Of a DNA stretch of 64,000 nucleotides, positions 1,886 to 62,815 are shown piece after piece (within the stretch, counting starts at the first letter, position 1; each line of letters opens with the position of its first letter). Position numbers and translations under genes: made by a program. The notes beneath the pieces were generated by a model, which did no database searches, was not told the DNA's origin, and saw nothing but the letters and a program-made list of their open reading frames with translations. This stretch comes from an uncultured Bacilli bacterium (GTDB lineage: Bacteria > Bacillota_I > Bacilli_A > RF39 > UBA660), in the NCBI GenBank assembly GCA_944358415.1, contig CALVRA010000001.1:33920-97919 (forward strand). The letters are read 5' to 3'.

Positions 1886-3640
1886 TTATGCTTTTTTCTT
1901 TAAAACAATGAATGCAGTAACCGCAACAATTACAGCAACACCACCAATTACAGCTACTAAAATTATACTATCTGATGTTTTTGGGTTAGTTGCTTCATCT
2001 TTAATATCTTCTTGATCTTTTAACTCTAAACTATCAATCGCTTTTAAAATGTCTTCAGCATATTGATCAACTTCTTTTTGTTCAGTAATGTTTTTATTCC
2101 AATCAACTTTGTTGATTGCATCTTCTACTAAACTAAAGTTTTTGTAGTCGTTTTTATTTAATTTGTTTGCTTTATCAATAGCTTCTTCTACTTTGCTATA
2201 ATCAGCTTTTTTATAAGCTATTGTGACAGTTCCATCTTCATTTGTAGTTACTATTTGGTCTTCATTTACAGTAACTTGATCTAATATTTCTTTAGGGAAT
2301 GTTCCGCCTTCAACGGTTGTTGTAGCACCTGTGTTAGTTGTTGGTATTGTTTGATAAGTACCACCTTTAATTGTTAATTTACCAGAATTTTTAATATTTG
2401 TATTAACTTTGCCAGTTTGGGCTTTACTTGTATCATTGATAGTAATATCTGAGCTATTAGCAATACTAATACCTTTGGTACTGTTAATAGTGTGTCCATT
2501 TAAATCAATGTTAATTTCTTTTCGGCTAATTGAAATGCTACTAGTTTCATTAGTGTCAGCTAATAATTTAACGTTAATGCCTTTAGAATCTAAAGGTACA
2601 CTATTAAGGGCATTTTTTAAATTCGTCCAATATGAATTTGTTGATTCTACATAGACATTAGCATTTTTCATTTCACCTTTTAAATCTAATTGGCCATTTC
2701 CAATTTTAACTCCACCAGTTCCAACAGTTAAAGTTCTTTCTTTAGGAATTACTACTGTAATGCCTTCAGGTATTATTAAAGCACTACTATAGTCAACATC
2801 AATAATTACTTTAGTTCCTTTAACACTATTAGCAATAATTGAACCGTTTGTGTTATTGTGATTAGTTTTAGCAGTTATTTCTCCACTATAAGATTGAACT
2901 GTTCCATTATTATTTCCTGTAGATGTTTTACCAGTAATAGTTGAATCACTAATATTAACTGTTTGCGTAGTTGTTGTACTGTTAAGTCTTTCAGTTCCTA
3001 GAAAATAAAGCCCTGTAATTGTTGAATTTTTAATAGTAATATCTGAATTTTTATTAGCACTAGCACCGCTTCGTGCGAATATGGCATAGTCTTTTTCGGC
3101 AACAACTTTTGTATTATCTACTTTAGCAGTTCCCCAGTTTTGAATAGCACCAGTAAAACCGATTTCTTTGTCCAAAGAGTTTCCCACATGAGTAGAAATA
3201 ACAGTTGAATTTTTAACAGTTAAATTACCATAATGTTCTCCTTCTTCATCTTTACTACTAGTTGCATCATTTTTAATAGTAGCAAAAGCACTTTCAGCTG
3301 TTATGCCATCTACTTCCATTGTGCCTAAGTTTCTAAGGCAAGATGAAGTATTTGATGGACAACTTATTTTACCTTTATTGCTTCCGGTATCGATTATTTT
3401 AACAGTACCTCTATTATCAACAAGATAATCATCAGTTGGTCCTGTTAAGGTATGACCATTTAGGTCAATTGTAAGGCTTTCGCCTTCATTAATGACGTGC
3501 CTTTTTGATAAAGTTACGTCTTCAGTTAGTTTGATTACATTACCACTTTGCATACCATCGAAAGATGTGGCTGCTTTTACGGCAAATGGCAAAGTAATAA
3601 ACAATGCAATAAACCCTAAAGAAAATATTTTCTTTTTCAT
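1886..3640 (-). CDS. large surface protein: N-terminal signal peptide, beta-helix-like Thr/Asn/Gly-rich repeats, helical FIVAR-like module, C-terminal TM anchor
   Basis: Signal peptide. Repeated IDLNGHT(L/I) and ...KNSTI... units. C-terminal hydrophobic helix plus KKKA. Confidence 0.5.
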   Translation of the reverse strand: MKKKIFSLGFIALFITLPFAVKAATSFDGMQSGNVIKLTEDVTLSKRHVINEGESLTIDLNGHTLTGPTDDYLVDNRGTVKIIDTGSNKGKISCPSNTSSCLRNLGTMEVDGITAESAFATIKNDATSSKDEEGEHYGNLTVKNSTVISTHVGNSLDKEIGFTGAIQNWGTAKVDNTKVVAEKDYAIFARSGASANKNSDITIKNSTITGLYFLGTERLNSTTTTQTVNISDSTITGKTSTGNNNGTVQSYSGEITAKTNHNNTNGSIIANSVKGTKVIIDVDYSSALIIPEGITVVIPKERTLTVGTGGVKIGNGQLDLKGEMKNANVYVESTNSYWTNLKNALNSVPLDSKGINVKLLADTNETSSISISRKEINIDLNGHTINSTKGISIANSSDITINDTSKAQTGKVNTNIKNSGKLTIKGGTYQTIPTTNTGATTTVEGGTFPKEILDQVTVNEDQIVTTNEDGTVTIAYKKADYSKVEEAIDKANKLNKNDYKNFSLVEDAINKVDWNKNITEQKEVDQYAEDILKAIDSLELKDQEDIKDEATNPKTSDSIILVAVIGGVAVIVAVTAFIVLKKKA

Positions 3641-3889
3641 TTTTCTACACTCCTCTCTATAATTAAGTATACCCTTTTTTCTACTTTTTTACAATTATTT
3701 TTTTGTTTGAAATTCTTTTTTTAGATAGAAGTGTTAAATAAAGTGACGAATAAAAAAGCATAGCAATATATAGCAATAAATATAATGATAATTTTAATAT
3801 AATCATACAAAATTTCAATGATATTGCCCATAAGTCATAAAGTATAACAGAACCTACATAAAATAAAACTTTCCTTTTTATTGGAAAGT

Positions 3890-5707
3890 TTATTTAGGAT
3901 TTTTCTTGTTTTCGTATTTTTTTCTTTCATTGGTGTTTAGAATTTTCTTTCTTAATCTATAGGTTGCAGGGGTTACTTCGACTAATTCATCTTCATTGAT
4001 ATAGTCTAGGCAAACTTCTAAACTCATTTCTCTTGGCCTTTTTAAGACTACAGTATGATCTTTATTCGCACTTCTAGTGTTTGTTAGTTGTTTACCTTTA
4101 GTAACGTTAACAGCTAAGTCGTTTTCATGGTTATTTTCACCAACTATCATACCCTCATAAACATCTGTTCCTGGTTCAATAAACATAACGCCTCTATCTT
4201 CTAGGGAACCTAGGGCATAGGCTGTAGCTTTGCCATTATCAATAGAAACAAGGACTCCGGCTTTTCTTTCACCAATATTACTTGCAGTAATTGGCTCATA
4301 AGATTTAAAGGCATGAGATAATATTCCATAACCTTTAGTTAAGGTCATAAATTCAGTTGTAAAGCCAATTAATCCTCTTGATGGAATGGTATATAAAAGT
4401 TTTGTCTGATTATCAAAAGGAGTCATATTTTCCATTGTTCCACCACGGTTACCTAATGATTCAATGACTGGTCCAACATATTCTTCTGGGACTTCGATTT
4501 CAACATCTTCAAAGGGTTCACATTTTATGTCATCTATTTCTTTGACAATGATTTGTGGTTTTGATACTTCTAGTTCATATCCTTCTCTTCGCATTGTTTC
4601 AATTAATATTGATAGGTGAAGTTCACCTCTACCAGATACCATCCATGACTCAGAGTCTATTTGTTTTACTTTTAAGGATACATCTTTTTCAGTTTCTTTG
4701 ATTAATCTATCTTCTATTTGTCTTGCGGTTAGAAATTTTCCATCTCTACCATTAAATGGACTGGTATTTACACCAAAGGTCATTTGTAAGGTTGGTTCAT
4801 CAATTCTAAGTGGTTCAAGTGCTTCTTCGTGTCCAACTTCACATACTGTTTCACCAACTGATATATCAGGTAAACCAGCTATAGCGACAATGTCTCCAGC
4901 ATGAGCTTCTTCAACTTCTATTTTATTTAGTCCTAGATAACCAAATATTTTTTGAATTCTAAACTGTTTTTTTGTACCATCTAAACGCATACATGTTACT
5001 GTAGAATTTACTTTGATATGTCCTCTTTTAACGACACCGATACCGATTCTTCCTACAAAATCATTATAATCAAGTAGGGCAGGTTGAAATTGGAAAGGTC
5101 CATTTTCATCAACATTTGGCTCTGGTATATTTTCAATAACGGCATCTAATATTGGATCCATGGTCTTGGCTTGAGTATTTAAATCAGAAGATGTAGAAGA
5201 GGTTCCATTTAGGGCAGATGCATATAATACTGGGAAGTCTAATTGTTCAATGGAAGCGCCTAATTCAATGAATAAATCCATGACTTCATCGACAACTTTT
5301 TCTGGTCTAGCAGATGGTTTATCGATTTTATTGACAACTACTATTGGAGTTACGCCAGCAGCTAGAGCTTTTTTTAGTACAAATCTAGTTTGAGGCATGG
5401 TTCCTTCATAGGCATCAACAACTAATAAAACACCATCAACCATATTCATTATTCTTTCAACTTCACCGCCAAAGTCAGCATGTCCTGGAGTATCTAAGAT
5501 GTTTATTTTATATCCTTTATAATTAATGGCAGTTGTTTTTGCTAAAATGGTTATTCCGCGTTCTTTTTCTAGGGCATTTGAATCCATGACTCTTTTTCCT
5601 ATTTCTTCGTTTTCTCTAAATGTTCCTGACTGTTTTAATAATTGATCGACGAGTGTTGTTTTACCATGATCGACATGGGCAATTATTGCAATATTTCTCT
5701 GTTTCAT
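3890..5707 (-). CDS. typA: translational GTPase TypA/BipA
   Basis: G1 [10 protein letters not shown]3 [12 protein letters not shown]. BipA length. Start moved to the ATG at 5707, which has an upstream AGAGGG RBS. Confidence 0.9.
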
Positions 5708-5776
5708 ACAAATCCCTCTTTTCACACTAGGAACAATTATAACACTTATGTATTTAATTGTAAATAAATTTTTGTT

Positions 5777-6373
5777 TTAAGATTGTTTGCGTTTTAGTGT
5801 GGAAAAGTTATTTATTAATCTAATTATTATTCTAATGGTCCATACAAAGAAACTTCCAATATATAAATCATTAATAGCATCTTCTCTTTTAGAAAAGTAA
5901 TTTGATTTTAAAATCATTTTATTTCTAAGTGAGAGAAGATTTAATATTTTTAAATCATCAAAGGTAATTATTTGACATCTTTTTTCTACTTCTGAGCAAG
6001 TAAATAGTTTACAAGTGAGATTTTTGGTTTTACAACCTTTTTCACTTTGATATTTGCACATTCTACAGCATCCATTTATAGTACCATTATTTAATTTTTG
6101 CTGGACGTAGCACTTATTATTTTTAAAACCACATATATTTTTATTATTATAATGGTTATCTATTTGCGTGCATGCTTCATCATAAATATATGTTATTCTT
6201 TCTTTTCTTTTTTTAATATTTAAAGCTGTAATGGGTTTTATTTCTTTATAGTCGGTTTCTACTTTAAAATATATTTTTTTAAAGATAAATGATTTATAAA
6301 AAAAGAGCTTTCGATAAAATTTATCTAAAGCTTTTTGGTCTTTTATTTTTAATATTTTAAGCATCAATTCCAC
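5777..6373 (-). CDS. cysteine-rich hypothetical protein
   Basis: Long ORF with clustered Cys (GCCRMCKY...GCKTKNLTCKLFTC). Overlaps the NUDIX gene stop by 17 nt, so it is probably co-transcribed. Confidence 0.4.
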   Translation of the reverse strand: MELMLKILKIKDQKALDKFYRKLFFYKSFIFKKIYFKVETDYKEIKPITALNIKKRKERITYIYDEACTQIDNHYNNKNICGFKNNKCYVQQKLNNGTINGCCRMCKYQSEKGCKTKNLTCKLFTCSEVEKRCQIITFDDLKILNLLSLRNKMILKSNYFSKREDAINDLYIGSFFVWTIRIIIRLINNFSTLKRKQS

Positions 6374-11970: not shown

Positions 11971-12837
11971 ATGATAAAATTGGAATGTGGTGATTTAATG
12001 TTAAGTAAATTTGATTATAGTAAAAATTTCATTGAAAATGATGAAATATTGGTATGTCCAATATGTAAAAAGAAATTATATATTAAAGAACATTCATTAA
12101 TGTGTGAAAATGCTCATAACTTTAATCTTTCAAAAAAAGGTATTACGAATCTTGTTTCACATAATCATATTAAAGAAAGCAAAATATATAATTATGATTT
12201 ATTTTTCAATAGAAGATGTTTCATTCAAAAAATGTTCTATCAAAAATTATATGATAAAATTGTCAGGATTATAAATAAACATTTTGATAAAAATATAAAT
12301 ATTTTAGATTTAGGCTGTGGAGAAGGGGCTCATACAATTAATATACTAAATAATTTAAAACTAAATTATAAGTATTATGGCTTTGATTATTCAAAAATAG
12401 CTATTCAAATGGCGAGTGATTATAATTCCAATAATAGATTTTATTTTGTAGGTGATGTTAATAATATTCCTATTAAAGATCATTCTACACATTTAATTAT
12501 TGATATACTTTCACCTTATAATCAGTTAGAAGTTAAAAGAGTTTTAAAGAAAAAAGGATTATTTATTAAAGTATCTCCAGGAAAAAACTATTTAAAAGAG
12601 CTTAGATTAGCTACAGGCATATCTATTTATGATAAAGATACAGAAGTTGAACGAAATTTGGAAAAAAATTTTAAAAAAGTGCGGAAAGAGAATATTTTAA
12701 TTACTTATCCTATTACTAATGAAGACTTTATGCTACTTTTAAAAATGTCGCCAATGCAAAGCGAAAAGATTTTAAATAAGCCTAATACAATTACAATTGA
12801 TTTAAATATATATATTATGAATGGAGAAGAATTATGA
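11971..12837 (+). CDS. RlmA-like SAM-dependent methyltransferase with N-terminal zinc ribbon
   Basis: CPICKKKL...CENAHNFNLSKKG zinc-ribbon and LDLGCGEG SAM motif, as in 23S rRNA G745/G748 methyltransferases. Its stop overlaps the next gene's start (ATGA). Confidence 0.7.
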   Translation: MIKLECGDLMLSKFDYSKNFIENDEILVCPICKKKLYIKEHSLMCENAHNFNLSKKGITNLVSHNHIKESKIYNYDLFFNRRCFIQKMFYQKLYDKIVRIINKHFDKNINILDLGCGEGAHTINILNNLKLNYKYYGFDYSKIAIQMASDYNSNNRFYFVGDVNNIPIKDHSTHLIIDILSPYNQLEVKRVLKKKGLFIKVSPGKNYLKELRLATGISIYDKDTEVERNLEKNFKKVRKENILITYPITNEDFMLLLKMSPMQSEKILNKPNTITIDLNIYIMNGEEL

Positions 12838-14150
12838 TTTCTAAATACGCAAATAAAATAAAAATCAAAAAAGATGTTTATGCAATATTTAATAGTTTAG
12901 TTATGTTACCCATTTTTGTTAACGAAAAACAATGTGCAAATATTTTAAATGGTAATATTGATAATTTAACTAATGAGGAAAAAACAGAATTTATAAAAGC
13001 CGGTATAATTATAGAAAATAAAGAAATTGATAATCAACTTTTAAATACACTAAAATCAGCACGTGAGCAATATATGAAAGAACATATCACTATAATGTAT
13101 ATTATTCCTACAAATACTTGTAATTTAAGATGTAAATATTGTTTTATAGGTAAACTTAATGATAAACCAATTAAAATGGAAGAAAGTACTTTGATTAAAG
13201 CCATAGAAATGTTTAATAGTCATTTAGAGAAAATAGGCGAAAAAGGGACTATATTTCTTTACGGAGCAGAGCCATTATTAAACTTTGATTTAATTAAATT
13301 AGGGGTTTTATATGTGAAAAAGCAAAATTATAATATTCAATTTTCTATGGTATCAAACGGAATACTTATAACTGAAGAAATAGCAGATTTTATAAAAAAT
13401 AACAACATCTCATTAGGAATTTCCATTGATGGTCCAAAAGAAATTACTGATGAAAATAGAATATTTAAAAGTAACAACAAAAGTGTGTACGATTTTGTTT
13501 TAAACAAAATAGAGTTATTAAAAGAAAAAAACGTTGATTTTGGTTTATCAATTACAATAGCACCTATTTTTCTTGAAAATGAAGACTATTTTCTAAATTG
13601 GATTTCTAAACTAGGAGTATATAACATTAGCTATAATTTATTACATTTCACTACTAAAACGGATGAATGGAAAGAATATTATAAAAAAGCAACTAAATTT
13701 ATTTATAAATCTAACAAAAAATTGTTTGATCAAGGTTTTAATGAAGATAGAATTAACAGAAAATATGATTCATTTTACAACAGAATATTTAAATTTAGTG
13801 ACTGTGGAGCGATTGGTGGAAATCAAATAACTGTATGTCCAAATGGTGATATTGAAATATGTCATGGTTATTGGAATTATAAAAGAAAAATTTTACCAAA
13901 CATTAATCAAATTCAATCATTTTCCGATTTATTTGATAATCCTGAATATATAAAATGGTCTAATAATATTACATTAAATAAGAAAAAATGTTTGCGTTGC
14001 CCTGCAATATATATATGTGGTGGTGGCTGTGCTATGCAAGCAAAGGATTTATTTGGTAATGAAAAGGAAATTGATAAACCATTTTGTATATATACTAAAG
14101 GAATGCTTAAAAACATATTAAAAGAGGTTTATGATGATAATATAAATTAA
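12834..14150 (+). CDS. radical SAM / SPASM-domain peptide maturase
   Basis: CNLRCKYC (Cx3Cx2C) cluster. C-terminal Cys-rich SPASM region (CGAIGG..CPNGDIEIC..CLRCPAIYICGGGC..FC). About 85-aa N-terminal extension. Confidence 0.85.
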   Translation: MISKYANKIKIKKDVYAIFNSLVMLPIFVNEKQCANILNGNIDNLTNEEKTEFIKAGIIIENKEIDNQLLNTLKSAREQYMKEHITIMYIIPTNTCNLRCKYCFIGKLNDKPIKMEESTLIKAIEMFNSHLEKIGEKGTIFLYGAEPLLNFDLIKLGVLYVKKQNYNIQFSMVSNGILITEEIADFIKNNNISLGISIDGPKEITDENRIFKSNNKSVYDFVLNKIELLKEKNVDFGLSITIAPIFLENEDYFLNWISKLGVYNISYNLLHFTTKTDEWKEYYKKATKFIYKSNKKLFDQGFNEDRINRKYDSFYNRIFKFSDCGAIGGNQITVCPNGDIEICHGYWNYKRKILPNINQIQSFSDLFDNPEYIKWSNNITLNKKKCLRCPAIYICGGGCAMQAKDLFGNEKEIDKPFCIYTKGMLKNILKEVYDDNIN

Positions 14151-14201
14151 TTGACTTCTAAGATATTATCATGATAGAATTAGCGAAAGGAGGGAAATAC
14201 A

Positions 14202-14387
14202 ATGAAAATAGCAAAAATTAGTACAACTAACAAAAAATTTAGAGCATCTAATTCTATGGCTTCTACTTGTAATTGTGGAGCTTGCAATTGCAATTGTGGT
14301 AGTGGAAGTAATTGCAGTAATGTTTTCATTTCACATGAAATAACATCATTGCTAAATGCTCAAGTCGATAACATTTTAAAAGCATAA
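14202..14387 (+). CDS. candidate RiPP precursor peptide (six-Cys, Cys/Asn/Gly/Ser-rich core)
   Basis: 61 aa. Strong RBS GGAGGG 8 nt upstream. Core TCNCGACNCNCGSGSNCSN. Immediately downstream of the rSAM/SPASM gene and followed by a terminator. Confidence 0.6.
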   Translation: MKIAKISTTNKKFRASNSMASTCNCGACNCNCGSGSNCSNVFISHEITSLLNAQVDNILKA

Positions 14388-14408
14388 TTTAGCATCTTTT
14401 TAACACCT

Positions 14409-14446
14409 AAACAGCGCATTATCTTAATTGATAAATGCGCTGTTTT
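14409..14446. terminator. bidirectional rho-independent terminator (copy A)
   Basis: 11-bp stem AAACAGCGCAT/ATGCGCTGTTT with a flanking T-run. Near-identical to the hairpin at 15148-15185. Confidence 0.7.
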
Positions 14447-14462
14447 GTATTAAAAAAAGAGT

Positions 14463-14598
14463 TTAGTTACTCTTTAATTCGTCAGGCGTTTTATCAAAGC
14501 AGTTTTCTGGATTTATGTATCTGCCATCGACAGTGATTTCAAATAGGACATGATTACCTAAGTCTTTTTTTTTAGTTTGACTGGCCATCTTTACCAAT
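14463..14598 (-). pseudogene. decayed duplicate of the 3' end of the SpoIIQ-like M23 gene
   Basis: Roughly 85-90% identical by eye to 15201-15335. The translation IGKDGQSN* is interrupted by a stop and a frameshift relative to IGKAGQSNLEKDLGNH. Confidence 0.7.
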
Positions 14599-14713
14599 TG
14601 TATTTTTTAATAAAATTTATTTGTATTTAAAGTCTTTTTCTATATTTTTACCATTTGATATATATATTGACATTTATAATTATTATATATACTAAAATTA
14701 AGGAGGTTTAGTT

Positions 14714-15145
14714 ATGACAGGAGAAGAATTGGAAGTGAAAAAAAGAGAATTACAAGAGTTACGAAAACTTAAAGCTGAGTTGATAAAGGAACGTCAAAGA
14801 TTTTTAGAGAATAGTTCAATTCAAGATTTTTTAACACTTGAAAAACGGATTAGTGAAACTAGTGAAGACTGTAATAATTTACAAAAAATAATACGAGATG
14901 GATGTCCTCACCCTATATGGTATGCGCTGAAACGTGATGTGCATACATACACAGGTAGAACTTATTTAACATGTATGTGTTTAGAATGTGGAAAAGTTAG
15001 AAAAGCTTATCCTCAAGATTTTTCAGAAGTTATATTTAAAAGTACACTTTCACCTTCTCAAGCAGTTAGTGAATGGGAAAAATTTAAAGATACATTTCCA
15101 AATACAAAAGACAAGGTTAAAACATTTACTAAAGTGATAAAATAG
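14714..15145 (+). CDS. hypothetical protein: N-terminal coiled coil plus C-terminal 4-Cys putative zinc-binding region
   Basis: AAGGAGG RBS 7 nt upstream. 143 aa. Cys at DGCPHP and LTCMCLECG. Bracketed by about 190-bp direct repeats. Confidence 0.5.
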   Translation: MTGEELEVKKRELQELRKLKAELIKERQRFLENSSIQDFLTLEKRISETSEDCNNLQKIIRDGCPHPIWYALKRDVHTYTGRTYLTCMCLECGKVRKAYPQDFSEVIFKSTLSPSQAVSEWEKFKDTFPNTKDKVKTFTKVIK

Positions 15146-15147
15146 AT

Positions 15148-15185
15148 AAACAGCGCATTTATCAGTTATGGTAATGCGCTGTTTT
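15148..15185. terminator. bidirectional rho-independent terminator (copy B)
   Basis: Stem AAACAGCGCAT/ATGCGCTGTTT plus a T-run. Serves ORF 14714-15145 and the convergent M23 gene. Confidence 0.7.
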
Positions 15186-15200
15186 ATATTAAAAAAGAGT

Positions 15201-15848
15201 TTAGTTACTCTTTAATTCATCAATTGTTTTATCAAAGCAGTTTTCTGGATTTATGTATTTGCCATCAATAGTTATTTCAAATAAAACATGGTTACCTAAG
15301 TCTTTTTCTAGGTTTGACTGGCCAGCTTTACCAATGACTGTGCTTTGAGCGACAGTATCGCCTTCTTTTACTGTTACTTCACTTAAGCTTTGATATGTGG
15401 TTATGACATTTGATTCATGTTCAATTGTAACGATTTTACCCATTAGTTTATCTTCTTTGACTGATGTGACGGTACCTGGTAAAACACTTACAACGTCGAA
15501 AATTTCGTTTATACCACCATAAGATGCACCACTATTTTGGATATATGTTGTATCATAGTTTATTATAGAGTTTTGCTGGGTGTTTTCATCGCTTTGGTAG
15601 TCATAGAAAGTATTTAAGGCTTTGACATTGGTGTTTGTATATGGTCTTACGATTACATTTGGGGTACTGACAACGGAAATGACATTATCATCAAATAGTC
15701 TAGAGACATAGATTAGGTCTTCTTCTGGTTTTAGATCTTGTTTTGATGTATTGGCATACATTAGACCACCAATTAGGGCAAGACTGACGGCGATGCAGAC
15801 ACTATAAATGACTGGTTTTTTTATTTTTAATTTTTTCATTTTTTTCAC
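15201..15848 (-). CDS. SpoIIQ-like membrane-anchored protein with a degenerate LytM (M23) domain
   Basis: N-terminal TM helix. M23 fold motifs are present, but HxxxD is absent and HxH is reduced to NHVLFE. Directly downstream of spoIID, as in clostridial spoIID-spoIIQ loci. Confidence 0.6.
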   Translation of the reverse strand: MKKMKKLKIKKPVIYSVCIAVSLALIGGLMYANTSKQDLKPEEDLIYVSRLFDDNVISVVSTPNVIVRPYTNTNVKALNTFYDYQSDENTQQNSIINYDTTYIQNSGASYGGINEIFDVVSVLPGTVTSVKEDKLMGKIVTIEHESNVITTYQSLSEVTVKEGDTVAQSTVIGKAGQSNLEKDLGNHVLFEITIDGKYINPENCFDKTIDELKSN

Positions 15849-15886
15849 CTCTCACTATCATTTTGGATAGTTTTGGGTTTTTTATA

Positions 15887-16798
15887 CTAAATTTTTTTTA
15901 TTTCGGTATTTTGATAATAGTGTTTTAATATTTGATCATATTTATATCCTTCTTTAGCCATGCCATTAGCTCCATATTGACTCATACCAACGCCATGTCC
16001 AAAACCTTTGGTGGTGATGGTTATTTTTTCGTTGTTTTGAGTTATTGTGAAATAATTTGAGCGAAGTGAGAGTTTAGTGGCTAAGTCTCTTCCATTTAAT
16101 TCTTGATTATTTATTTTTAGTTTTTTTATTCTACCAGTTGAGGTTTTTTGGGTTATTTCGATGTTTAATTTTTCATTATAAGGTAGGTTTAATTTTGTAT
16201 AAAAGTCTTTTAGATCAAAGGTATATGTATCATTAAAAACAGGTGAGGCTTCATCCCATTTACTATCAACACTTCTTAGATAAGGTAATTTTGAGACAAA
16301 TACTTCTTCGCTATTTTCGGTTTTGCCGACTGAGGTAGAGAAAAACATGGCATTAACTATTTGATTATTATAAGTTAGATATTCACCGCTTGTTTCTTGA
16401 ATAGCTTTATTTATTTTATTTATTTTTTCTTGATAGTTTTCTTTCCAATTTGTTTTTAACTGTTCATCAGTTAGATATACTTGGTTAGCGGTGGTGTTTA
16501 ATACATCATATTCTTTATCTTTAGTGGCGGTCATTTGATACATGGCATAGCTTCTTGAAGCAACTGCTTGGGCTTTTAGGGCTTCTAGTTCAAATGTGGC
16601 AGGCATTTCACCAGCGACAACTCCTTTTATATATTTTTCAAAAGGGATAGTCATTATTTGATTTGTTTTTTCATCTTTGACTCTAATTATATTATTGGTT
16701 TTATATTTGAATTTTATTTCATCTGTTTGAATGAAAATTTTGGTAAATAAAAAAGGTATTATGACTACTAATAGTGCGGTTATAATAAACTTTTTCAT
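15887..16798 (-). CDS. spoIID: stage II sporulation protein D (lytic transglycosylase)
   Basis: SpoIID/LytB domain motifs: EALKAQAVASRSYA, FFSTSVGKTENS, GHGVGMSQYGA. Confidence 0.85.
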   Translation of the reverse strand: MKKFIITALLVVIIPFLFTKIFIQTDEIKFKYKTNNIIRVKDEKTNQIMTIPFEKYIKGVVAGEMPATFELEALKAQAVASRSYAMYQMTATKDKEYDVLNTTANQVYLTDEQLKTNWKENYQEKINKINKAIQETSGEYLTYNNQIVNAMFFSTSVGKTENSEEVFVSKLPYLRSVDSKWDEASPVFNDTYTFDLKDFYTKLNLPYNEKLNIEITQKTSTGRIKKLKINNQELNGRDLATKLSLRSNYFTITQNNEKITITTKGFGHGVGMSQYGANGMAKEGYKYDQILKHYYQNTEIKKI

Positions 16799-18714: not shown

Positions 18715-19125
18715 TTAAAATTTTAGTAAAATTTTTTCTATATTTTCTAGGATAGTGTTGATATTAGGGTTATTTTTTAAAATGTTTAATTTATTTGTTA
18801 TTTTGTTTATTTTTTCCTCAATGGTTAAATTATTTGGAATATAATTACTATAATTATTTTGTTTGAATGTTTTTTTAGTTATATCATCTTCAATAATTAT
18901 ATAATTTATTTTGAATTCTTTTAGTTTTGTTATTACTTTATCATAACTATTAGTAGGAAAACCTAGTCTTTTATTATTGTTTATTTCTTTTATTTTATAA
19001 TTAAATAAATTATTTAATATATAGGCATCTTCATTATATGTTTCATAGAATATTCCTACTTTTATTAATATTATGTATTTTGGATATTTGTTTTTATTTA
19101 AGTTATATTTTTCGATTATTTTCAC
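18715..19125 (-). CDS. standalone MutS-domain-I-like protein (candidate DGR accessory, MSL-type)
   Basis: Residues 14-80 align by eye to the MutS N-terminal mismatch-binding domain, including GIFYETY versus MutS GDFYELF (Phe-x-Glu motif retained). Immediately downstream of the TR. Confidence 0.6.
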   Translation of the reverse strand: MKIIEKYNLNKNKYPKYIILIKVGIFYETYNEDAYILNNLFNYKIKEINNNKRLGFPTNSYDKVITKLKEFKINYIIIEDDITKKTFKQNNYSNYIPNNLTIEEKINKITNKLNILKNNPNINTILENIEKILLKF

Positions 19126-19222
19126 AGCTTACCTCCAATTAAAAAAGCAGTATTAAATATTAGACAAAAATATGTCTTATATATGGTACTGCTTTAAAAT
19201 ATATTTTATTTATAGGGAAATG

Positions 19223-19390
19223 GTGTATGGATTTGACTGGGTTCCAGTTCCTCCTGTAATTTGGACATCAGAGGAAAGAGTTATGGCAGGGCGGACCGCG
19301 TTGTTCGTATTGTTCGCGTTGTTGTTGTTGACGTTGCCGTTGTTGTTCACATTGAACACGTTGTTAGAGTTACTAGAATTAGGCGACAAG
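19223..19390 (-). repeat. DGR template repeat (TR)
   Basis: 168-bp copy of the target gene's 3' end, rich in AAC/AAT codons. All but one difference from the VR lie at adenines of this copy (coding strand). Confidence 0.8.
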
Positions 19391-19523
19391 CAAAACAGTC
19401 CAAACATATTAGTATTGCCCCATATATTGTGCCAAAAATATTTTTTCGGCCATGGCGAGGCATTCGCCCCGCTACCAAACTCCTATCGGAGTTTGCGAAA
19501 TCATTCTATCCACTGTTTTATTC

Positions 19524-20453
19524 TTAACTCAAAGTGTATGGATTTGACTGGGTTCCAGTTCCTCCTGTAATTTGGACATCAGAGGAAAGAGTTATGGCAG
19601 GGCGGACCGCGTTGTTCGCAGAGAACGCGTAGGTGCTGTAGACGTTGCCGTAGTTGGTCACCTCGAACACGCGGCCAGAGACACCAGAATCAGGCGACAA
19701 TGTCCACCAAAAACTACTTGAACCAAACATCCAATCACTATTATTACATGTATGAGAATTACTATTATATGTACTGAATGTTTTACAGCTTGTATTTGAT
19801 CCCGCTCTTATATATTCGCTTACGGTTGGTAAGGCTACTTTTACATTTGATGTTGTTCCTTTTTCATCATTTATTTGATCTTGCATATCATTATTATTAT
19901 TTGTTACTGCCCCTGTATAATACGTTGACGTAACTATTTGACTTTGGGCAGTTGATGTTAAACTATTATAATAATCTTTATTCAAATATGTATTAAGACT
20001 TGCTGGACGATTCCAATTATTTGACATTGATGTGTCCCAAACTCTATTATCTATACTTGCATCCCTCATTATTTTTATAGTTCCATCTGAATTTATCGAT
20101 ATGATTCTCCAGCCGGCTTTCTCATTATTAAACGTTACATAATTATTGGGATTGGCTCCTTTATAGGTGTATTTTCCATCTTCATATTCATCTTCATATA
20201 AACCATCTCCTGAGGTTACTATATCTACATTATCTAATATTGTATCTCCGGTTGTTGGTGGGAAACAGACATTATAAAGTTCATCTATTGCTCCTTGGAC
20301 ATTAGTTGATGAAAGGCCACTTGCACTATTATCATATGTTGTTTGATTACTTGGAAAATATGTTGTTGCATATACTCCTACTACAGTAAATAATATTAAT
20401 CCGATAAAAAATCCTATTAAATATTTCTTTGAAAATTCTTTTATTTTCTTCAT
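19524..20453 (-). CDS. membrane-anchored surface protein, DGR target (C-terminal variable ligand-binding-type domain)
   Basis: N-terminal TM anchor. Conserved YDNSASGLSSTNVQGAIDELY module. C-terminal WWTLSP...AVRPAITL region contains the VR. Confidence 0.8.
   Translation of the reverse strand: MKKIKEFSKKYLIGFFIGLILFTVVGVYATTYFPSNQTTYDNSASGLSSTNVQGAIDELYNVCFPPTTGDTILDNVDIVTSGDGLYEDEYEDGKYTYKGANPNNYVTFNNEKAGWRIISINSDGTIKIMRDASIDNRVWDTSMSNNWNRPASLNTYLNKDYYNSLTSTAQSQIVTSTYYTGAVTNNNNDMQDQINDEKGTTSNVKVALPTVSEYIRAGSNTSCKTFSTYNSNSHTCNNSDWMFGSSSFWWTLSPDSGVSGRVFEVTNYGNVYSTYAFSANNAVRPAITLSSDVQITGGTGTQSNPYTLS
19534..19701 (-). repeat. DGR variable repeat (VR), at the 3' end of the target CDS
   Basis: The 3' 85 bp are identical to the TR. 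The 5' 73 bp (19619-19691) carry 21 substitutions, 20 of them opposite TR adenines. Confidence 0.8.
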
Positions 20454-20664: not shown

Positions 20665-20853
20665 ATGTTTAGATTAAAACCTGACAGGAAAGAGACTGAA
20701 AACAAATCAATTAGATTTCCCATAGATTTAATTAATCGTATTGAGAAAATATTAGTGGGAAAAAATATTTCTTTTACTGCTTTTGTAATTCAAGCCTGTG
20801 AATATGCGCTTGCTAATATGGAGGTTGAAGAAAAAAAGAAAGTAAATTCTTAA
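20665..20853 (+). CDS. small ribbon-helix-helix-type DNA-binding protein (putative)
   Basis: 62 aa. KSIRFPIDLINRIEKIL resembles an RHH beta-strand plus helix. Divergent from the DGR target gene. GGAGAGG RBS. Confidence 0.45.
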   Translation: MFRLKPDRKETENKSIRFPIDLINRIEKILVGKNISFTAFVIQACEYALANMEVEEKKKVNS

Positions 20854-45079: not shown

Positions 45080-45300
45080 TAAATAAAAAAACATCCTTAG
45101 GATAAGGACGTTTATGAGCGTGGTACCACCTTAATTCGTAAGATTTTCTTACCTTTGAACATATAACGGTGTTTACCGCTTTAGCTTAAATATCGGCTAA
45201 AGTGCTTAGGAGCCATTTAGAGTAGTCACCTTGTTTATTTCCACCAACCATAAACTCTCTATAAAGTTACCTACTTTTCTTTCCTTCACAGCATTTATGG
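45080..45300 (-). promoter_or_regulatory. T-box riboswitch leader (probable Met specifier AUG)
   Basis: Minus strand reads AATTAAGGTGGTACCACGC (T-box consensus) at 45118-45136, followed by a terminator hairpin plus U-run. Stem I begins with an AGAGAG motif. AAAUGG specifier candidate at 45214-45216. Confidence 0.8.
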
Positions 45301-48368: not shown

Positions 48369-49325
48369 TTATTTTATTGTATAGGGATTTGACTGACTTC
48401 CATCTCCTCCTGTGATTTGGATTTCAGAAGAAATATAAACAACTGGTCGAATTGCACCTTCGTATTTAACAAAGTAGTCATTAATTTGTCCGGCTTTTTG
48501 ATTTGTATATCCAAATATGGCAAATACATGATCAGATTGATTGGCATCTGGAGTCAAAGTATATAAATTTTGAACATATGATGTACTATACAACCATGTA
48601 GTATTTTTACAGGTACTATAATTATTATTATATTTACTAAGCGTTCCGCAATTATTTTGATTACTATTACTTCTTAGATATTCTGATGCTGTTATTAATG
48701 CAACTTTATCGTTCCATATTTTTGTTTTCTCATCATTTATTTGATCTGATAAATTATTATTCCTTATTACTGAACCTATACTCCAATCTTTAGATATAAT
48801 TTGATTTTTAGCAGCCACATTTAACCCATTATAATATGTTCCATTTAAATATGTATTTAATGTGGCTGGCATTGTCCAGTTATTTAAAGTGGCACTGCCT
48901 CCACTGCCATTCCAATACATTGCTCCTATCGTTTCATCTTTTATTATTTTAATTATTCCATCACATTCGACTGATATGATTCGCCATGTTTCATTATTAA
49001 ATATTATGTAATTGTTAGGATTTGTTCCAGCAAAAAAATAACGACATTCATATTTGTCTGGATATAATCCATCACCAGTTGTTACTATTGGTACTTTTTC
49101 TAATATTTGAATTCCACCTATTGATGAAGTCTTGCACTCCTTATAAAGCTCATCTATTGCTCCTTGGACATCAGTACTTTGAAGTCCACTTGTTTTGTTA
49201 TCATATGTTACTTGGCTACTTGCAAAATAAGTTGCAGCTGATACTCCTATAGTACTAAAAACTAGGGAAGTTATTATAAAAACGAAAAGTTTGCTATTAA
49301 TAAACTTTTTTATTTTTGATTTCAT
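48369..49325 (-). CDS. membrane-anchored surface protein, non-diversified paralogue of the DGR target
   Basis: Same architecture and many conserved blocks as 19524-20453 (TM anchor, YDNKTSGLQSTDVQGAIDELY, ...IRPVVYISSEIQITGG). No matching TR. Confidence 0.6.
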   Translation of the reverse strand: MKSKIKKFINSKLFVFIITSLVFSTIGVSAATYFASSQVTYDNKTSGLQSTDVQGAIDELYKECKTSSIGGIQILEKVPIVTTGDGLYPDKYECRYFFAGTNPNNYIIFNNETWRIISVECDGIIKIIKDETIGAMYWNGSGGSATLNNWTMPATLNTYLNGTYYNGLNVAAKNQIISKDWSIGSVIRNNNLSDQINDEKTKIWNDKVALITASEYLRSNSNQNNCGTLSKYNNNYSTCKNTTWLYSTSYVQNLYTLTPDANQSDHVFAIFGYTNQKAGQINDYFVKYEGAIRPVVYISSEIQITGGDGSQSNPYTIK

Positions 49326-62632: not shown

Positions 62633-62651
62633 ATTATCACCTATATAAAAA

Positions 62652-62724
62652 GGTACACACATTTAGAGGACCTTAAGGCTGCTATCTTCCGATTCTGACC
62701 TGGTTCAGCCATAAATGTTGTACC
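62652..62724 (-). ncRNA. ffs: small (4.5S-type) signal recognition particle RNA
   Basis: Minus strand reads GGUACAACAUUUAUGGCUGAACCAGGUCAGAAUCGGAAGAUAGCAGCCUUAAGGUCCUCUAAAUGUGUGUACC. Domain IV core ACCAGGUCAG..CGGAAG..AGCAGCC and a closing helix are present. Lies near tadA/dnaX as in Bacillus. Confidence 0.75.
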
Positions 62725-62815
62725 AATAATTATATTATAATAATTAGAGAAAAATGTCTATATTTTTTTATAAGTTTTTATAAGTTTTGTATGGTTTTCC
62801 ACAGTATTTATTTTT

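Follow-up and report, generated by a model that had tools for sequence, protein, structure and literature searches.

An incomplete MSL-class diversity-generating retroelement locus in an uncultured Bacilli bacterium

The locus and its target gene

Diversity-generating retroelements (DGRs) reverse-transcribe the RNA of a template repeat (TR) with misincorporation opposite adenine, and the cDNA then replaces a variable repeat (VR). We analyzed a stretch of 64,000 nucleotides (here, the window) from contig CALVRA010000001.1 of the uncultured Bacilli bacterium assembly GCA_944358415.1, which holds an incomplete locus of such a system. On its minus strand, a gene for a membrane-anchored protein carries a VR near its 3' end and is followed by a TR and by a gene for a MutS-like (MSL) DGR accessory protein (Table 1). 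The source organism is one of a set of uncultured Bacilli whose metagenome-assembled genomes (MAGs) are of ~1.5 Mb.

Table 1. Features of the DGR locus, in window positions
Feature	Position	Strand	Details
Target gene, 309-aa protein	19524..20453	-	N-terminal hydrophobic anchor MKKIKEFSKKYLIGFFIGLILFTVVGVYA; C-terminal DUF6273 carrying the VR
VR, templated 105-nt segment	19596..19700	-	20 changes at adenine sites and 1 at a non-adenine site relative to TR; changed positions run from 19691 to 19619
GC-rich 3' boundary of VR (AACGCGGTCCGCCCTGCC), candidate element like the initiation of mutagenic homing (IMH) site	19596..19613	-	Adenine-only divergence ends here in other VRs
Gene 3' end past the VR, outside the templated segment	19534..19595	-	100% identical to 19223-19284
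Spacer A, three predicted hairpins	19431..19495 (19476-19495, 19455-19472, 19431-19451)	-	Just past the stop codon
Spacer B, conserved TR leader (ATATATGGGGCAATACTAATATGTTTGG...)	19390..19427	-	Kept upstream of TR in L005, L014, L023, L170 and reverse transcriptase-linked L084
TR, templating segment	19285..19389	-	36 A in 105 nt; 17 Asn (AAY) codons
Copy of target-gene 3' end fused to TR (...TLSSDVQITGGTGTQSNPYTISL*)	19210..19284	-	Replaces the ~230-nt spacer of L084, L080, L087 and L089
Long hairpin and T-run, terminator-like	19141..19195	-	Inverted repeat with stem AAGCAGTACC/GGTACTGCTT; fold energy -17.7 kcal/mol
MSL DGR accessory gene, 136 aa, intact	18715..19125	-	Pfam MutS_I, E = 4e-9

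The target protein has 2292 database homologs. Pfam places DUF6273 at aa 124-290 (E = 9e-12), a domain that covers the VR and that has been modelled as a C-type-lectin-like DGR target domain (PMC10743442). An alignment of 29 homologs is well conserved apart from one block, which coincides with the VR and in which a scaffold, WWTLSPxSxxSxxVFxVxxxGxVxxxxAxxTxxAVRPAITLSS, is retained around positions (x) that are free. An AlphaFold model built with 29 close homologs had a mean pLDDT of 41, unusable for the fold, and a PDB sequence search with the target found no relative.

Mismatches in the repeat pair fall at adenines of one copy

The two copies form a direct repeat of 167 nt on the minus strand, a downstream copy at 19223-19389 and an upstream copy at 19534-19700, with a start-to-start spacing of 311; the repeat stops short of position 19390/19701, where the copies already differ. 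The copies differ at 21 positions, and at 20 of these the downstream copy has an adenine, which has become G (9 sites), T (7) or C (4) in the upstream copy. The sole mismatch at another base is T>G at 19351/19662. All 21 are confined to the 73-nt stretch 19380..19308, with 32 adenines, 62.5% of them altered, and 41 other bases, while the 3' 85 nt of the repeat are identical in both copies. Enrichment at adenines is strong by Fisher's exact test both over the entire repeat (p = 5.4e-10) and within the 73-nt segment (p = 8.7e-9). At non-adenine sites, the two copies agree at 109/110 positions over the entire repeat and at 68/69 over TR positions 1-105. The variable segment of the upstream copy has 56.6% GC, versus 28.4% for the window.

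An earlier note on this DNA, made from the sequence alone, had described most of this pattern. Its repeat and spacing of 311 were borne out, with a length of 167 nt in place of the 168 bp given, and the gene copy does form the 3' end of the coding sequence of the 309-aa surface protein, the open reading frame (ORF) 19524-20453 containing 19534-19700. Realignment agreed on the identical 3' 85 bp, and a recount returned the same 21 mismatches, all but one at an adenine in the downstream copy, with about 60% of about 32 adenines substituted and a single other difference, at 19351/19662; the non-adenine sites number 41, not about 43. The VR segment is GC-rich for the genome, as the note had it, and its description of the downstream copy as rich in Asn codons agrees with our count of 17 AAY codons. 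The check that it proposed, a tabulation of mismatches by template base, found nearly all of them at adenines (20/21) and no spread over the four bases.

The downstream copy translates as LSPNSSNSNNVFNVNNNGNVNNNNANNTNNAVRPAI. Adenines in its first 105 nt occupy codon positions 1, 2 and 3 in 21, 17 and 1 cases, respectively; almost all are placed at positions 1 and 2 of AAY codons, so mutagenesis yields no stops. This copy is the AAY-rich, non-mutated master copy, and it is still pristine, with all AAY codons kept. The DGR origin of the differences between VR and TR is supported. A second full copy of the window TR was not recovered among the sequences compared, of which L088, a contig of an independent sample, spans only the last 21 nt of the repeat (19223-19243) and the tail. 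Upstream of the TR, the leader is shared with L084, a relative with a linked reverse transcriptase (RT), at 77% identity over 123 nt extending into the TR. A weak sigma-70-like match, TTGGCA-18-TAATAT at 19435-19406, overlaps this leader and is at consensus level only.

One template sequence accounts for variable repeats elsewhere

Further VRs were taken from the DNA of the target's closest homologs, on four contigs (L003, L081, L082 and L083) that represent three further metagenome samples, one of which contributed both L003 and L081 as separate scaffolds, and were compared with the window TR over positions 1-105. Adenine/non-adenine changes relative to the TR are 18/0 in L003, 17/0 in L081, 20/0 in L082, which additionally bears a 3-nt insertion, and 18/0 in L083, each VR being identical to the TR at 69/69 non-adenine sites. 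Pooled with the window VR, the five give 93 changes at adenine sites versus 1 elsewhere, and the TR thus agrees with all five at every non-adenine position but one. The five VRs are mutually different: L003 and the window VR have 13 changed positions in common and the same base at only 5 of them. Because the VRs match the TR at essentially all non-adenine sites and differ freely at adenines, homing appears to have been recent and repeated in this species. The four extra targets occupy different gene neighborhoods, and no TR lies within the flank available for each. One TR sequence accounts for several unlinked VRs and therefore behaves as that of a DGR with remote targets.

These VRs also locate the end of the templated segment. 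Past TR position 105, differences from the TR copy at non-adenine sites set in for L081 and L083, and because these VRs show such differences only 3' of that position, the templated segment ends at the GC-rich AACGCGGTCCGCCCTGCC: adenine-only divergence stops there, and ordinary divergence starts beyond. The boundary maps to this sequence in four other VRs. By analogy with the Bordetella phage DGR, AACGCGGTCCGCCCTGCC is a candidate for an IMH-like function. Of the TR/VR repeat pair of the earlier note, only the first 105 nt act as template; the 3' 62 nt are instead a copy of the gene end.

Spacer A, beyond the stop codon, is nearly invariant 3' of targets in L005, L007, L009, L013, L014, L023, L049 and L170, and it follows many targets, whether a TR is present or not. 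The diversified remote targets L003 and L083 lack it, so it is not required at a VR. RNAalifold predicts its hairpins on an alignment too invariant for covariation, and Rfam has no family for the spacers or for the region 3' of the TR.

A paralog in the same window (48369-49325, minus strand, 318 aa) has the overall architecture of the target. Its VR-equivalent region is AT-rich (~30% GC) and unmatched by the TR, only the last ~55 nt resembling the repeat; considered as a second DGR target, it was rejected as AT-rich there and not templated, and it shows how an untemplated copy looks in this genome. Ungapped, adenine-tolerant scans near ~30 other targets found no full TR, only truncated stubs in L005, L014 and L023. 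Exact-pattern scans for VR variants (the TR with A replaced by N) gave 0 matches in JGI metagenomes and IMG/VR, and patterns for spacer A and the spacer region gave 0 matches in IMG/VR; the lineage seems absent from these collections.

At least 17 paralogs of the ~310-aa target are scattered over the 1.52-Mb genome OZ007022.1, not every one a demonstrated active target; the paralog loci of this genome include L004-L009, L013, L016, L023, L026, L033, L034, L037, L043, L044 and L050. Several of these paralogs are followed by the conserved hairpin element, and none has a full TR within 10 kb.

Two alleles of the region 3' of the template repeat

Directly 3' of the TR, the RT-linked relatives L084 and L080 have a conserved region of ~230 nt. 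The same region is present in the sister-strain alleles L087 (1-156) and L089 (1-131), where it lies upstream of a terminator-like hairpin, whereas it is absent between TR and hairpin in the window and in L088. Its place in the window is taken by the gene-end copy, 62 nt identical to the adjacent gene and then ...TISL*, and the window sequence rejoins that of the sister strains at breakpoint 19207. The junction of TR tail and hairpin (window 19243-18902) is also found in L088 (1-343), at 98.8% identity; because it recurs in this independent contig, the gene-end junction is a real allele and not a misassembly. Two alleles, one with the ~230-nt spacer and one with the gene-end copy, coexist in strains that are 98-99% identical. 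The stem of the hairpin is kept upstream of MSL in all relatives (L080, L084, L085, L087 and L089).

The layout of leader, TR and gene end recurs in TR-like ORFs that belong to other organisms (P0147 and P0148/L170). The TR-like copy of L170 (597-797) has the same leader and gene-end tail, and many of its Asn codons are changed at adenines (ISIGIVGDNGANGTNTALN); housekeeping genes lie next to it, with no MSL or RT nearby. This copy may be a self-mutagenized or decaying TR. In the window, TR and VR share an identical 3' flank, leaving no IMH/IMH* distinction. In the Bordetella system, a TR whose 3' flank is identical to that of the VR would be exposed to self-mutagenesis, an idea that the adenine-depleted L170 copy fits.

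The MSL gene and its setting

In L080, from the uncultured Bacilli MAG OZ007038.1, the order of genes is DUF6273 target, TR, MSL homolog, Avd and RT. The window MSL is 52% identical (E = 1e-32) to the L080 ORF between TR and Avd and 66% identical to its homolog in L084, which is followed directly by bAvd and an RVT_1 protein. Among strains, MSL is 97-99% conserved. With regard to the accessory genes of DGRs (avd, HRDC, MSL or CH1), the window has MSL and no avd. MSL, avd and RT stand in one cassette (Architecture D) in L080 and L084 and do not at the window locus, where MSL is followed by rpsF-ssb-rpsR; nor does an RT accompany the TR anywhere in the 64-kb window or at the sister-strain locus. 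As the sister contigs L087 and L089 agree in this respect, the lack of avd and RT at the locus is a stable feature of the species and not an assembly quirk.

The C-terminal 40 aa of MSL were considered as a fused Avd remnant, an idea rejected on nonsignificant BLASTP results and on full-length conservation of the tail across the MSL family. A scan of metagenome contigs with an MSL profile brought up nothing but complete MutS genes (700-1100 aa) that have no RT in their vicinity, and is uninformative on the context of MSL. In L088 (120-344), the MSL ORF breaks off at residue 74 and gives way to unrelated sequence, through either a rearrangement or a chimeric contig.

Discussion

We read this locus as the target-TR-MSL part of an MSL-class DGR in an uncultured low-GC Bacilli bacterium, and put the probability of this reading at about 85%; its TR would be copied by an RT encoded elsewhere. 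Since homing has been recent and repeated, an RT is required somewhere in these genomes; since homing needs an RT and none is at the locus, a split system with avd and RT in trans is favored. Trans action has an experimental precedent in a plasmid-borne avd-TR-brt (cited in PMC5758913), and diversification in trans has been proposed for incomplete loci of Thiohalocapsa (PMC10907252). The DGR cassette of the earlier note is upheld in its TR/VR assignment and in its origin; as a cassette it is incomplete, with RT and Avd absent from the window.

The mechanism that we envisage takes its RT and cDNA steps from the Bordetella phage and Legionella systems (PMC5758913, PMC3240598). A TR-containing RNA would be made, possibly from the conserved leader (19390-19435), and would end at the hairpin at 19141-19195. 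An RT prone to errors at adenines would then copy it together with Avd, both of them encoded elsewhere, and the template would be either the window TR or another, identical TR copy. The cDNA would replace VR sequence up to the GC-rich boundary, and the outcome would be diversification of ~15-20 residues of the ligand-binding surface in several paralogous surface proteins.

Several observations weigh against this reading. A six-frame scan of the 64-kb window for YxDD and IGxxxSQ motifs found nothing RT-like in open frames, and tblastn of the window with two DGR RTs (of L007 and of L084-type relatives) and one Avd as queries gave no match at E <= 10. The sister-strain contigs L087 and L089, 98-99% identical and from other samples, likewise continue from MSL to rpsF. 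The window TR is without the ~230-nt region found in the RT-linked relatives and in the sister-strain alleles, and priming in the Bordetella phage DGR depends on the equivalent spacer. Signs of decay are present among relatives as well: TRs are truncated in L005, L014 and L023, the target in L085 has no VR, the TR copy in L170 is partly adenine-depleted, and RT genes are split by an insertion in L080 and L065.

The incomplete locus may depend on a distant RT that acts in trans, or its inactivation may be recent. The latter explanation, a relic in which mutagenic retrohoming shaped the repeat pair before Avd and RT were lost, the priming spacer was replaced and the VR was frozen, shares the DGR origin with our reading and differs from it solely on present activity. 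It is a serious alternative, with a considerable if minority chance of being correct: it would account for the lack of RT and Avd in the window and at the sister-strain locus, for a spacer that is gone here yet present in L087 and L089, for the one non-adenine mismatch already accumulated between TR and VR, for the widespread decay among relatives and for the truncated MSL ORF in L088, which has the same allele. What argues against a relic is the identity at non-adenine sites, 109/110 in the window and 69/69 in four VRs that differ from one another at adenines, which points to very recent and repeated homing, together with an MSL gene that is intact and 97-99% conserved among strains and a TR that retains all its AAY codons. 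A stronger form of the split-system reading, in which the target-TR-MSL module is a maintained RT-less satellite, a distant avd-RT copies its TR in trans to diversify dispersed surface paralogs, and the gene-end-tailed TR is a distinct and possibly self-targetable architecture, we offer only tentatively, as somewhat unlikely.

Explanations without a retroelement fare worse. Ordinary divergence of a duplicated gene 3' end would suit a repeat that takes in the gene's 3' end to 3 nt before the last codons, as a plain duplication would, but it is refuted by the mismatch spectrum (20/21 at adenines of one copy; p = 5e-10), which recurs in four independent VRs with 0 non-adenine changes, and by the AAY codon design of one copy and the linked DGR accessory gene; we give it next to no chance. 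Antigenic variation from a silent cassette, a promoterless 3' cassette recombined into an expressed gene as in pilS or vls, is very improbable. The downstream copy does begin exactly at the VR boundary and continue through the stop codon, an architecture with its own conserved C-terminal coding end that is also seen in P0147 and P0148/L170. There is only a single cassette, however, whose poly-Asn string is never seen in the expressed copies, and its differences from all five of these are confined to cassette adenines, which recombination cannot produce. That the locus is a chimeric join of TR and gene-end reads is scarcely credible given the recurrence of the junction in L088, even though assemblies of relatives frequently end a contig at or close to these repeats.

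DGRs that contain MSL were classed as Architecture D by Wu et al. in 2018, with one MSL protein placed in a Legionella DGR (PMC5758913); in that survey MSL occurs only alongside avd, and TRs are usually adjacent to the RT (PMC5758913). The window locus resembles these systems in its small MutS-domain-I protein gene beside the TR, its C-terminal VR and its AAY-rich TR, and the order TR-MSL-avd-RT is complete in its relatives L080 and L084, whereas the locus itself and the surrounding 64 kb have neither avd nor RT. The DGR of Bordetella phage BPP-1 (mtd-avd-TR-brt) offers the same adenine-specific transfer from TR to VR, a GC-rich 3' boundary and a VR at the C terminus, in its case of a ligand-binding protein. 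The window locus departs from BPP-1 in having no cis-linked RT or Avd, in the identical 3' flanks of TR and VR, which remove the IMH/IMH* distinction, in the missing spacer 3' of the TR, and in predicted hairpins that lie ~100 nt beyond the GC-rich boundary instead of adjoining it.

With the DGR of Treponema denticola and others with remote targets (PMC5758913), the present one has in common that a single TR sequence accounts for several unlinked VRs. There, however, the TR accompanies the RT and the targets are remote, whereas here the TR accompanies one of the targets and it is the RT that is remote or absent. Paralogs are also far more numerous in relatives of the window, with at least 17 in OZ007022.1. 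The incomplete loci of Thiohalocapsa PB-PSB1 (PMC10907252) are a parallel in that structural variants of a locus coexist in a population and trans diversification has been proposed; they differ in phylum, target class and RT clade, and the RT-less locus of the window retains its TR and an accessory gene. VRs on the same Pfam domain are known from DUF6273 targets of gut phages and Faecalibacterium prophages (PMC10743442, PMC11792537), which are receptor-binding proteins in phage-borne cassettes; the target described here is instead chromosomal and membrane-anchored, stands among housekeeping genes (ychF ... rpsF-ssb-rpsR) and has no IMG/VR match.

DGRs, MSL genes, DUF6273 targets, remote targets and incomplete loci have all been described already. 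What is unusual here, and may prove informative, is a TR-MSL module that has no RT and exists as two alleles in one species. With this locus, a well-documented chromosomal DGR is now available from uncultured Bacilli that have small genomes and live in animal guts. In this lineage, the binding surface of a large membrane-anchored DUF6273 family (2292 homologs) seems to be programmed by one short template, and the locus provides a natural test of which DGR parts need linkage, with TR and MSL together and avd and RT elsewhere or lost. Standard DGR finders anchor on the RT and seek TRs nearby and would miss such modules. If an RT-less module is indeed active in trans, RT-anchored surveys count too few TRs and make the reach of DGRs look smaller than it is; a dead module would instead offer a dated snapshot of DGR decay.

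Further elements in relatives and in the window

The DGR RT gene of L080 (insert at 12626-16067) and that of L065 (about 2750-6196), in two MAGs, are each interrupted after about residue 225 by an insert of 3.4 kb with three consecutive tyrosine recombinase genes, like a recombinase-in-trio element. In L005 (11074-11135) and L014 (about 990-1025), the TR is truncated after 58 and 30 nt, respectively, both times at ...AACGT, and the same sequence, GTTTTATTAGACATGTCTAATAA, follows both truncations; further on, L005 and L001 have two integrase genes and an IS3-type transposase. This arrangement suggests that a mobile element targets AACGT motifs in the TR for insertion.

A separate, complete DGR of another type is found in OZ007022.1 (L007, 17329-18500), comprising a 996-aa target, bAvd and RT. 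Four TR-like copies stand in tandem here, all with GGCTACGGCGTCCGCCCAATTTCC at their end, and the second and the fourth are each followed by a conserved region of ~220 nt.

Divergent from the target gene, the window has a 62-aa ORF (20665-20853, plus strand) with no Pfam match; the equivalent position in relatives is occupied by small helix-turn-helix (XRE-type) genes (L001, L081 and L083). Elsewhere on the minus strand of the window are a T-box leader (45101-45298, 115.7 bits) and a bacterial small signal recognition particle RNA (62637-62734, 58.5 bits), both ordinary for a Firmicute.

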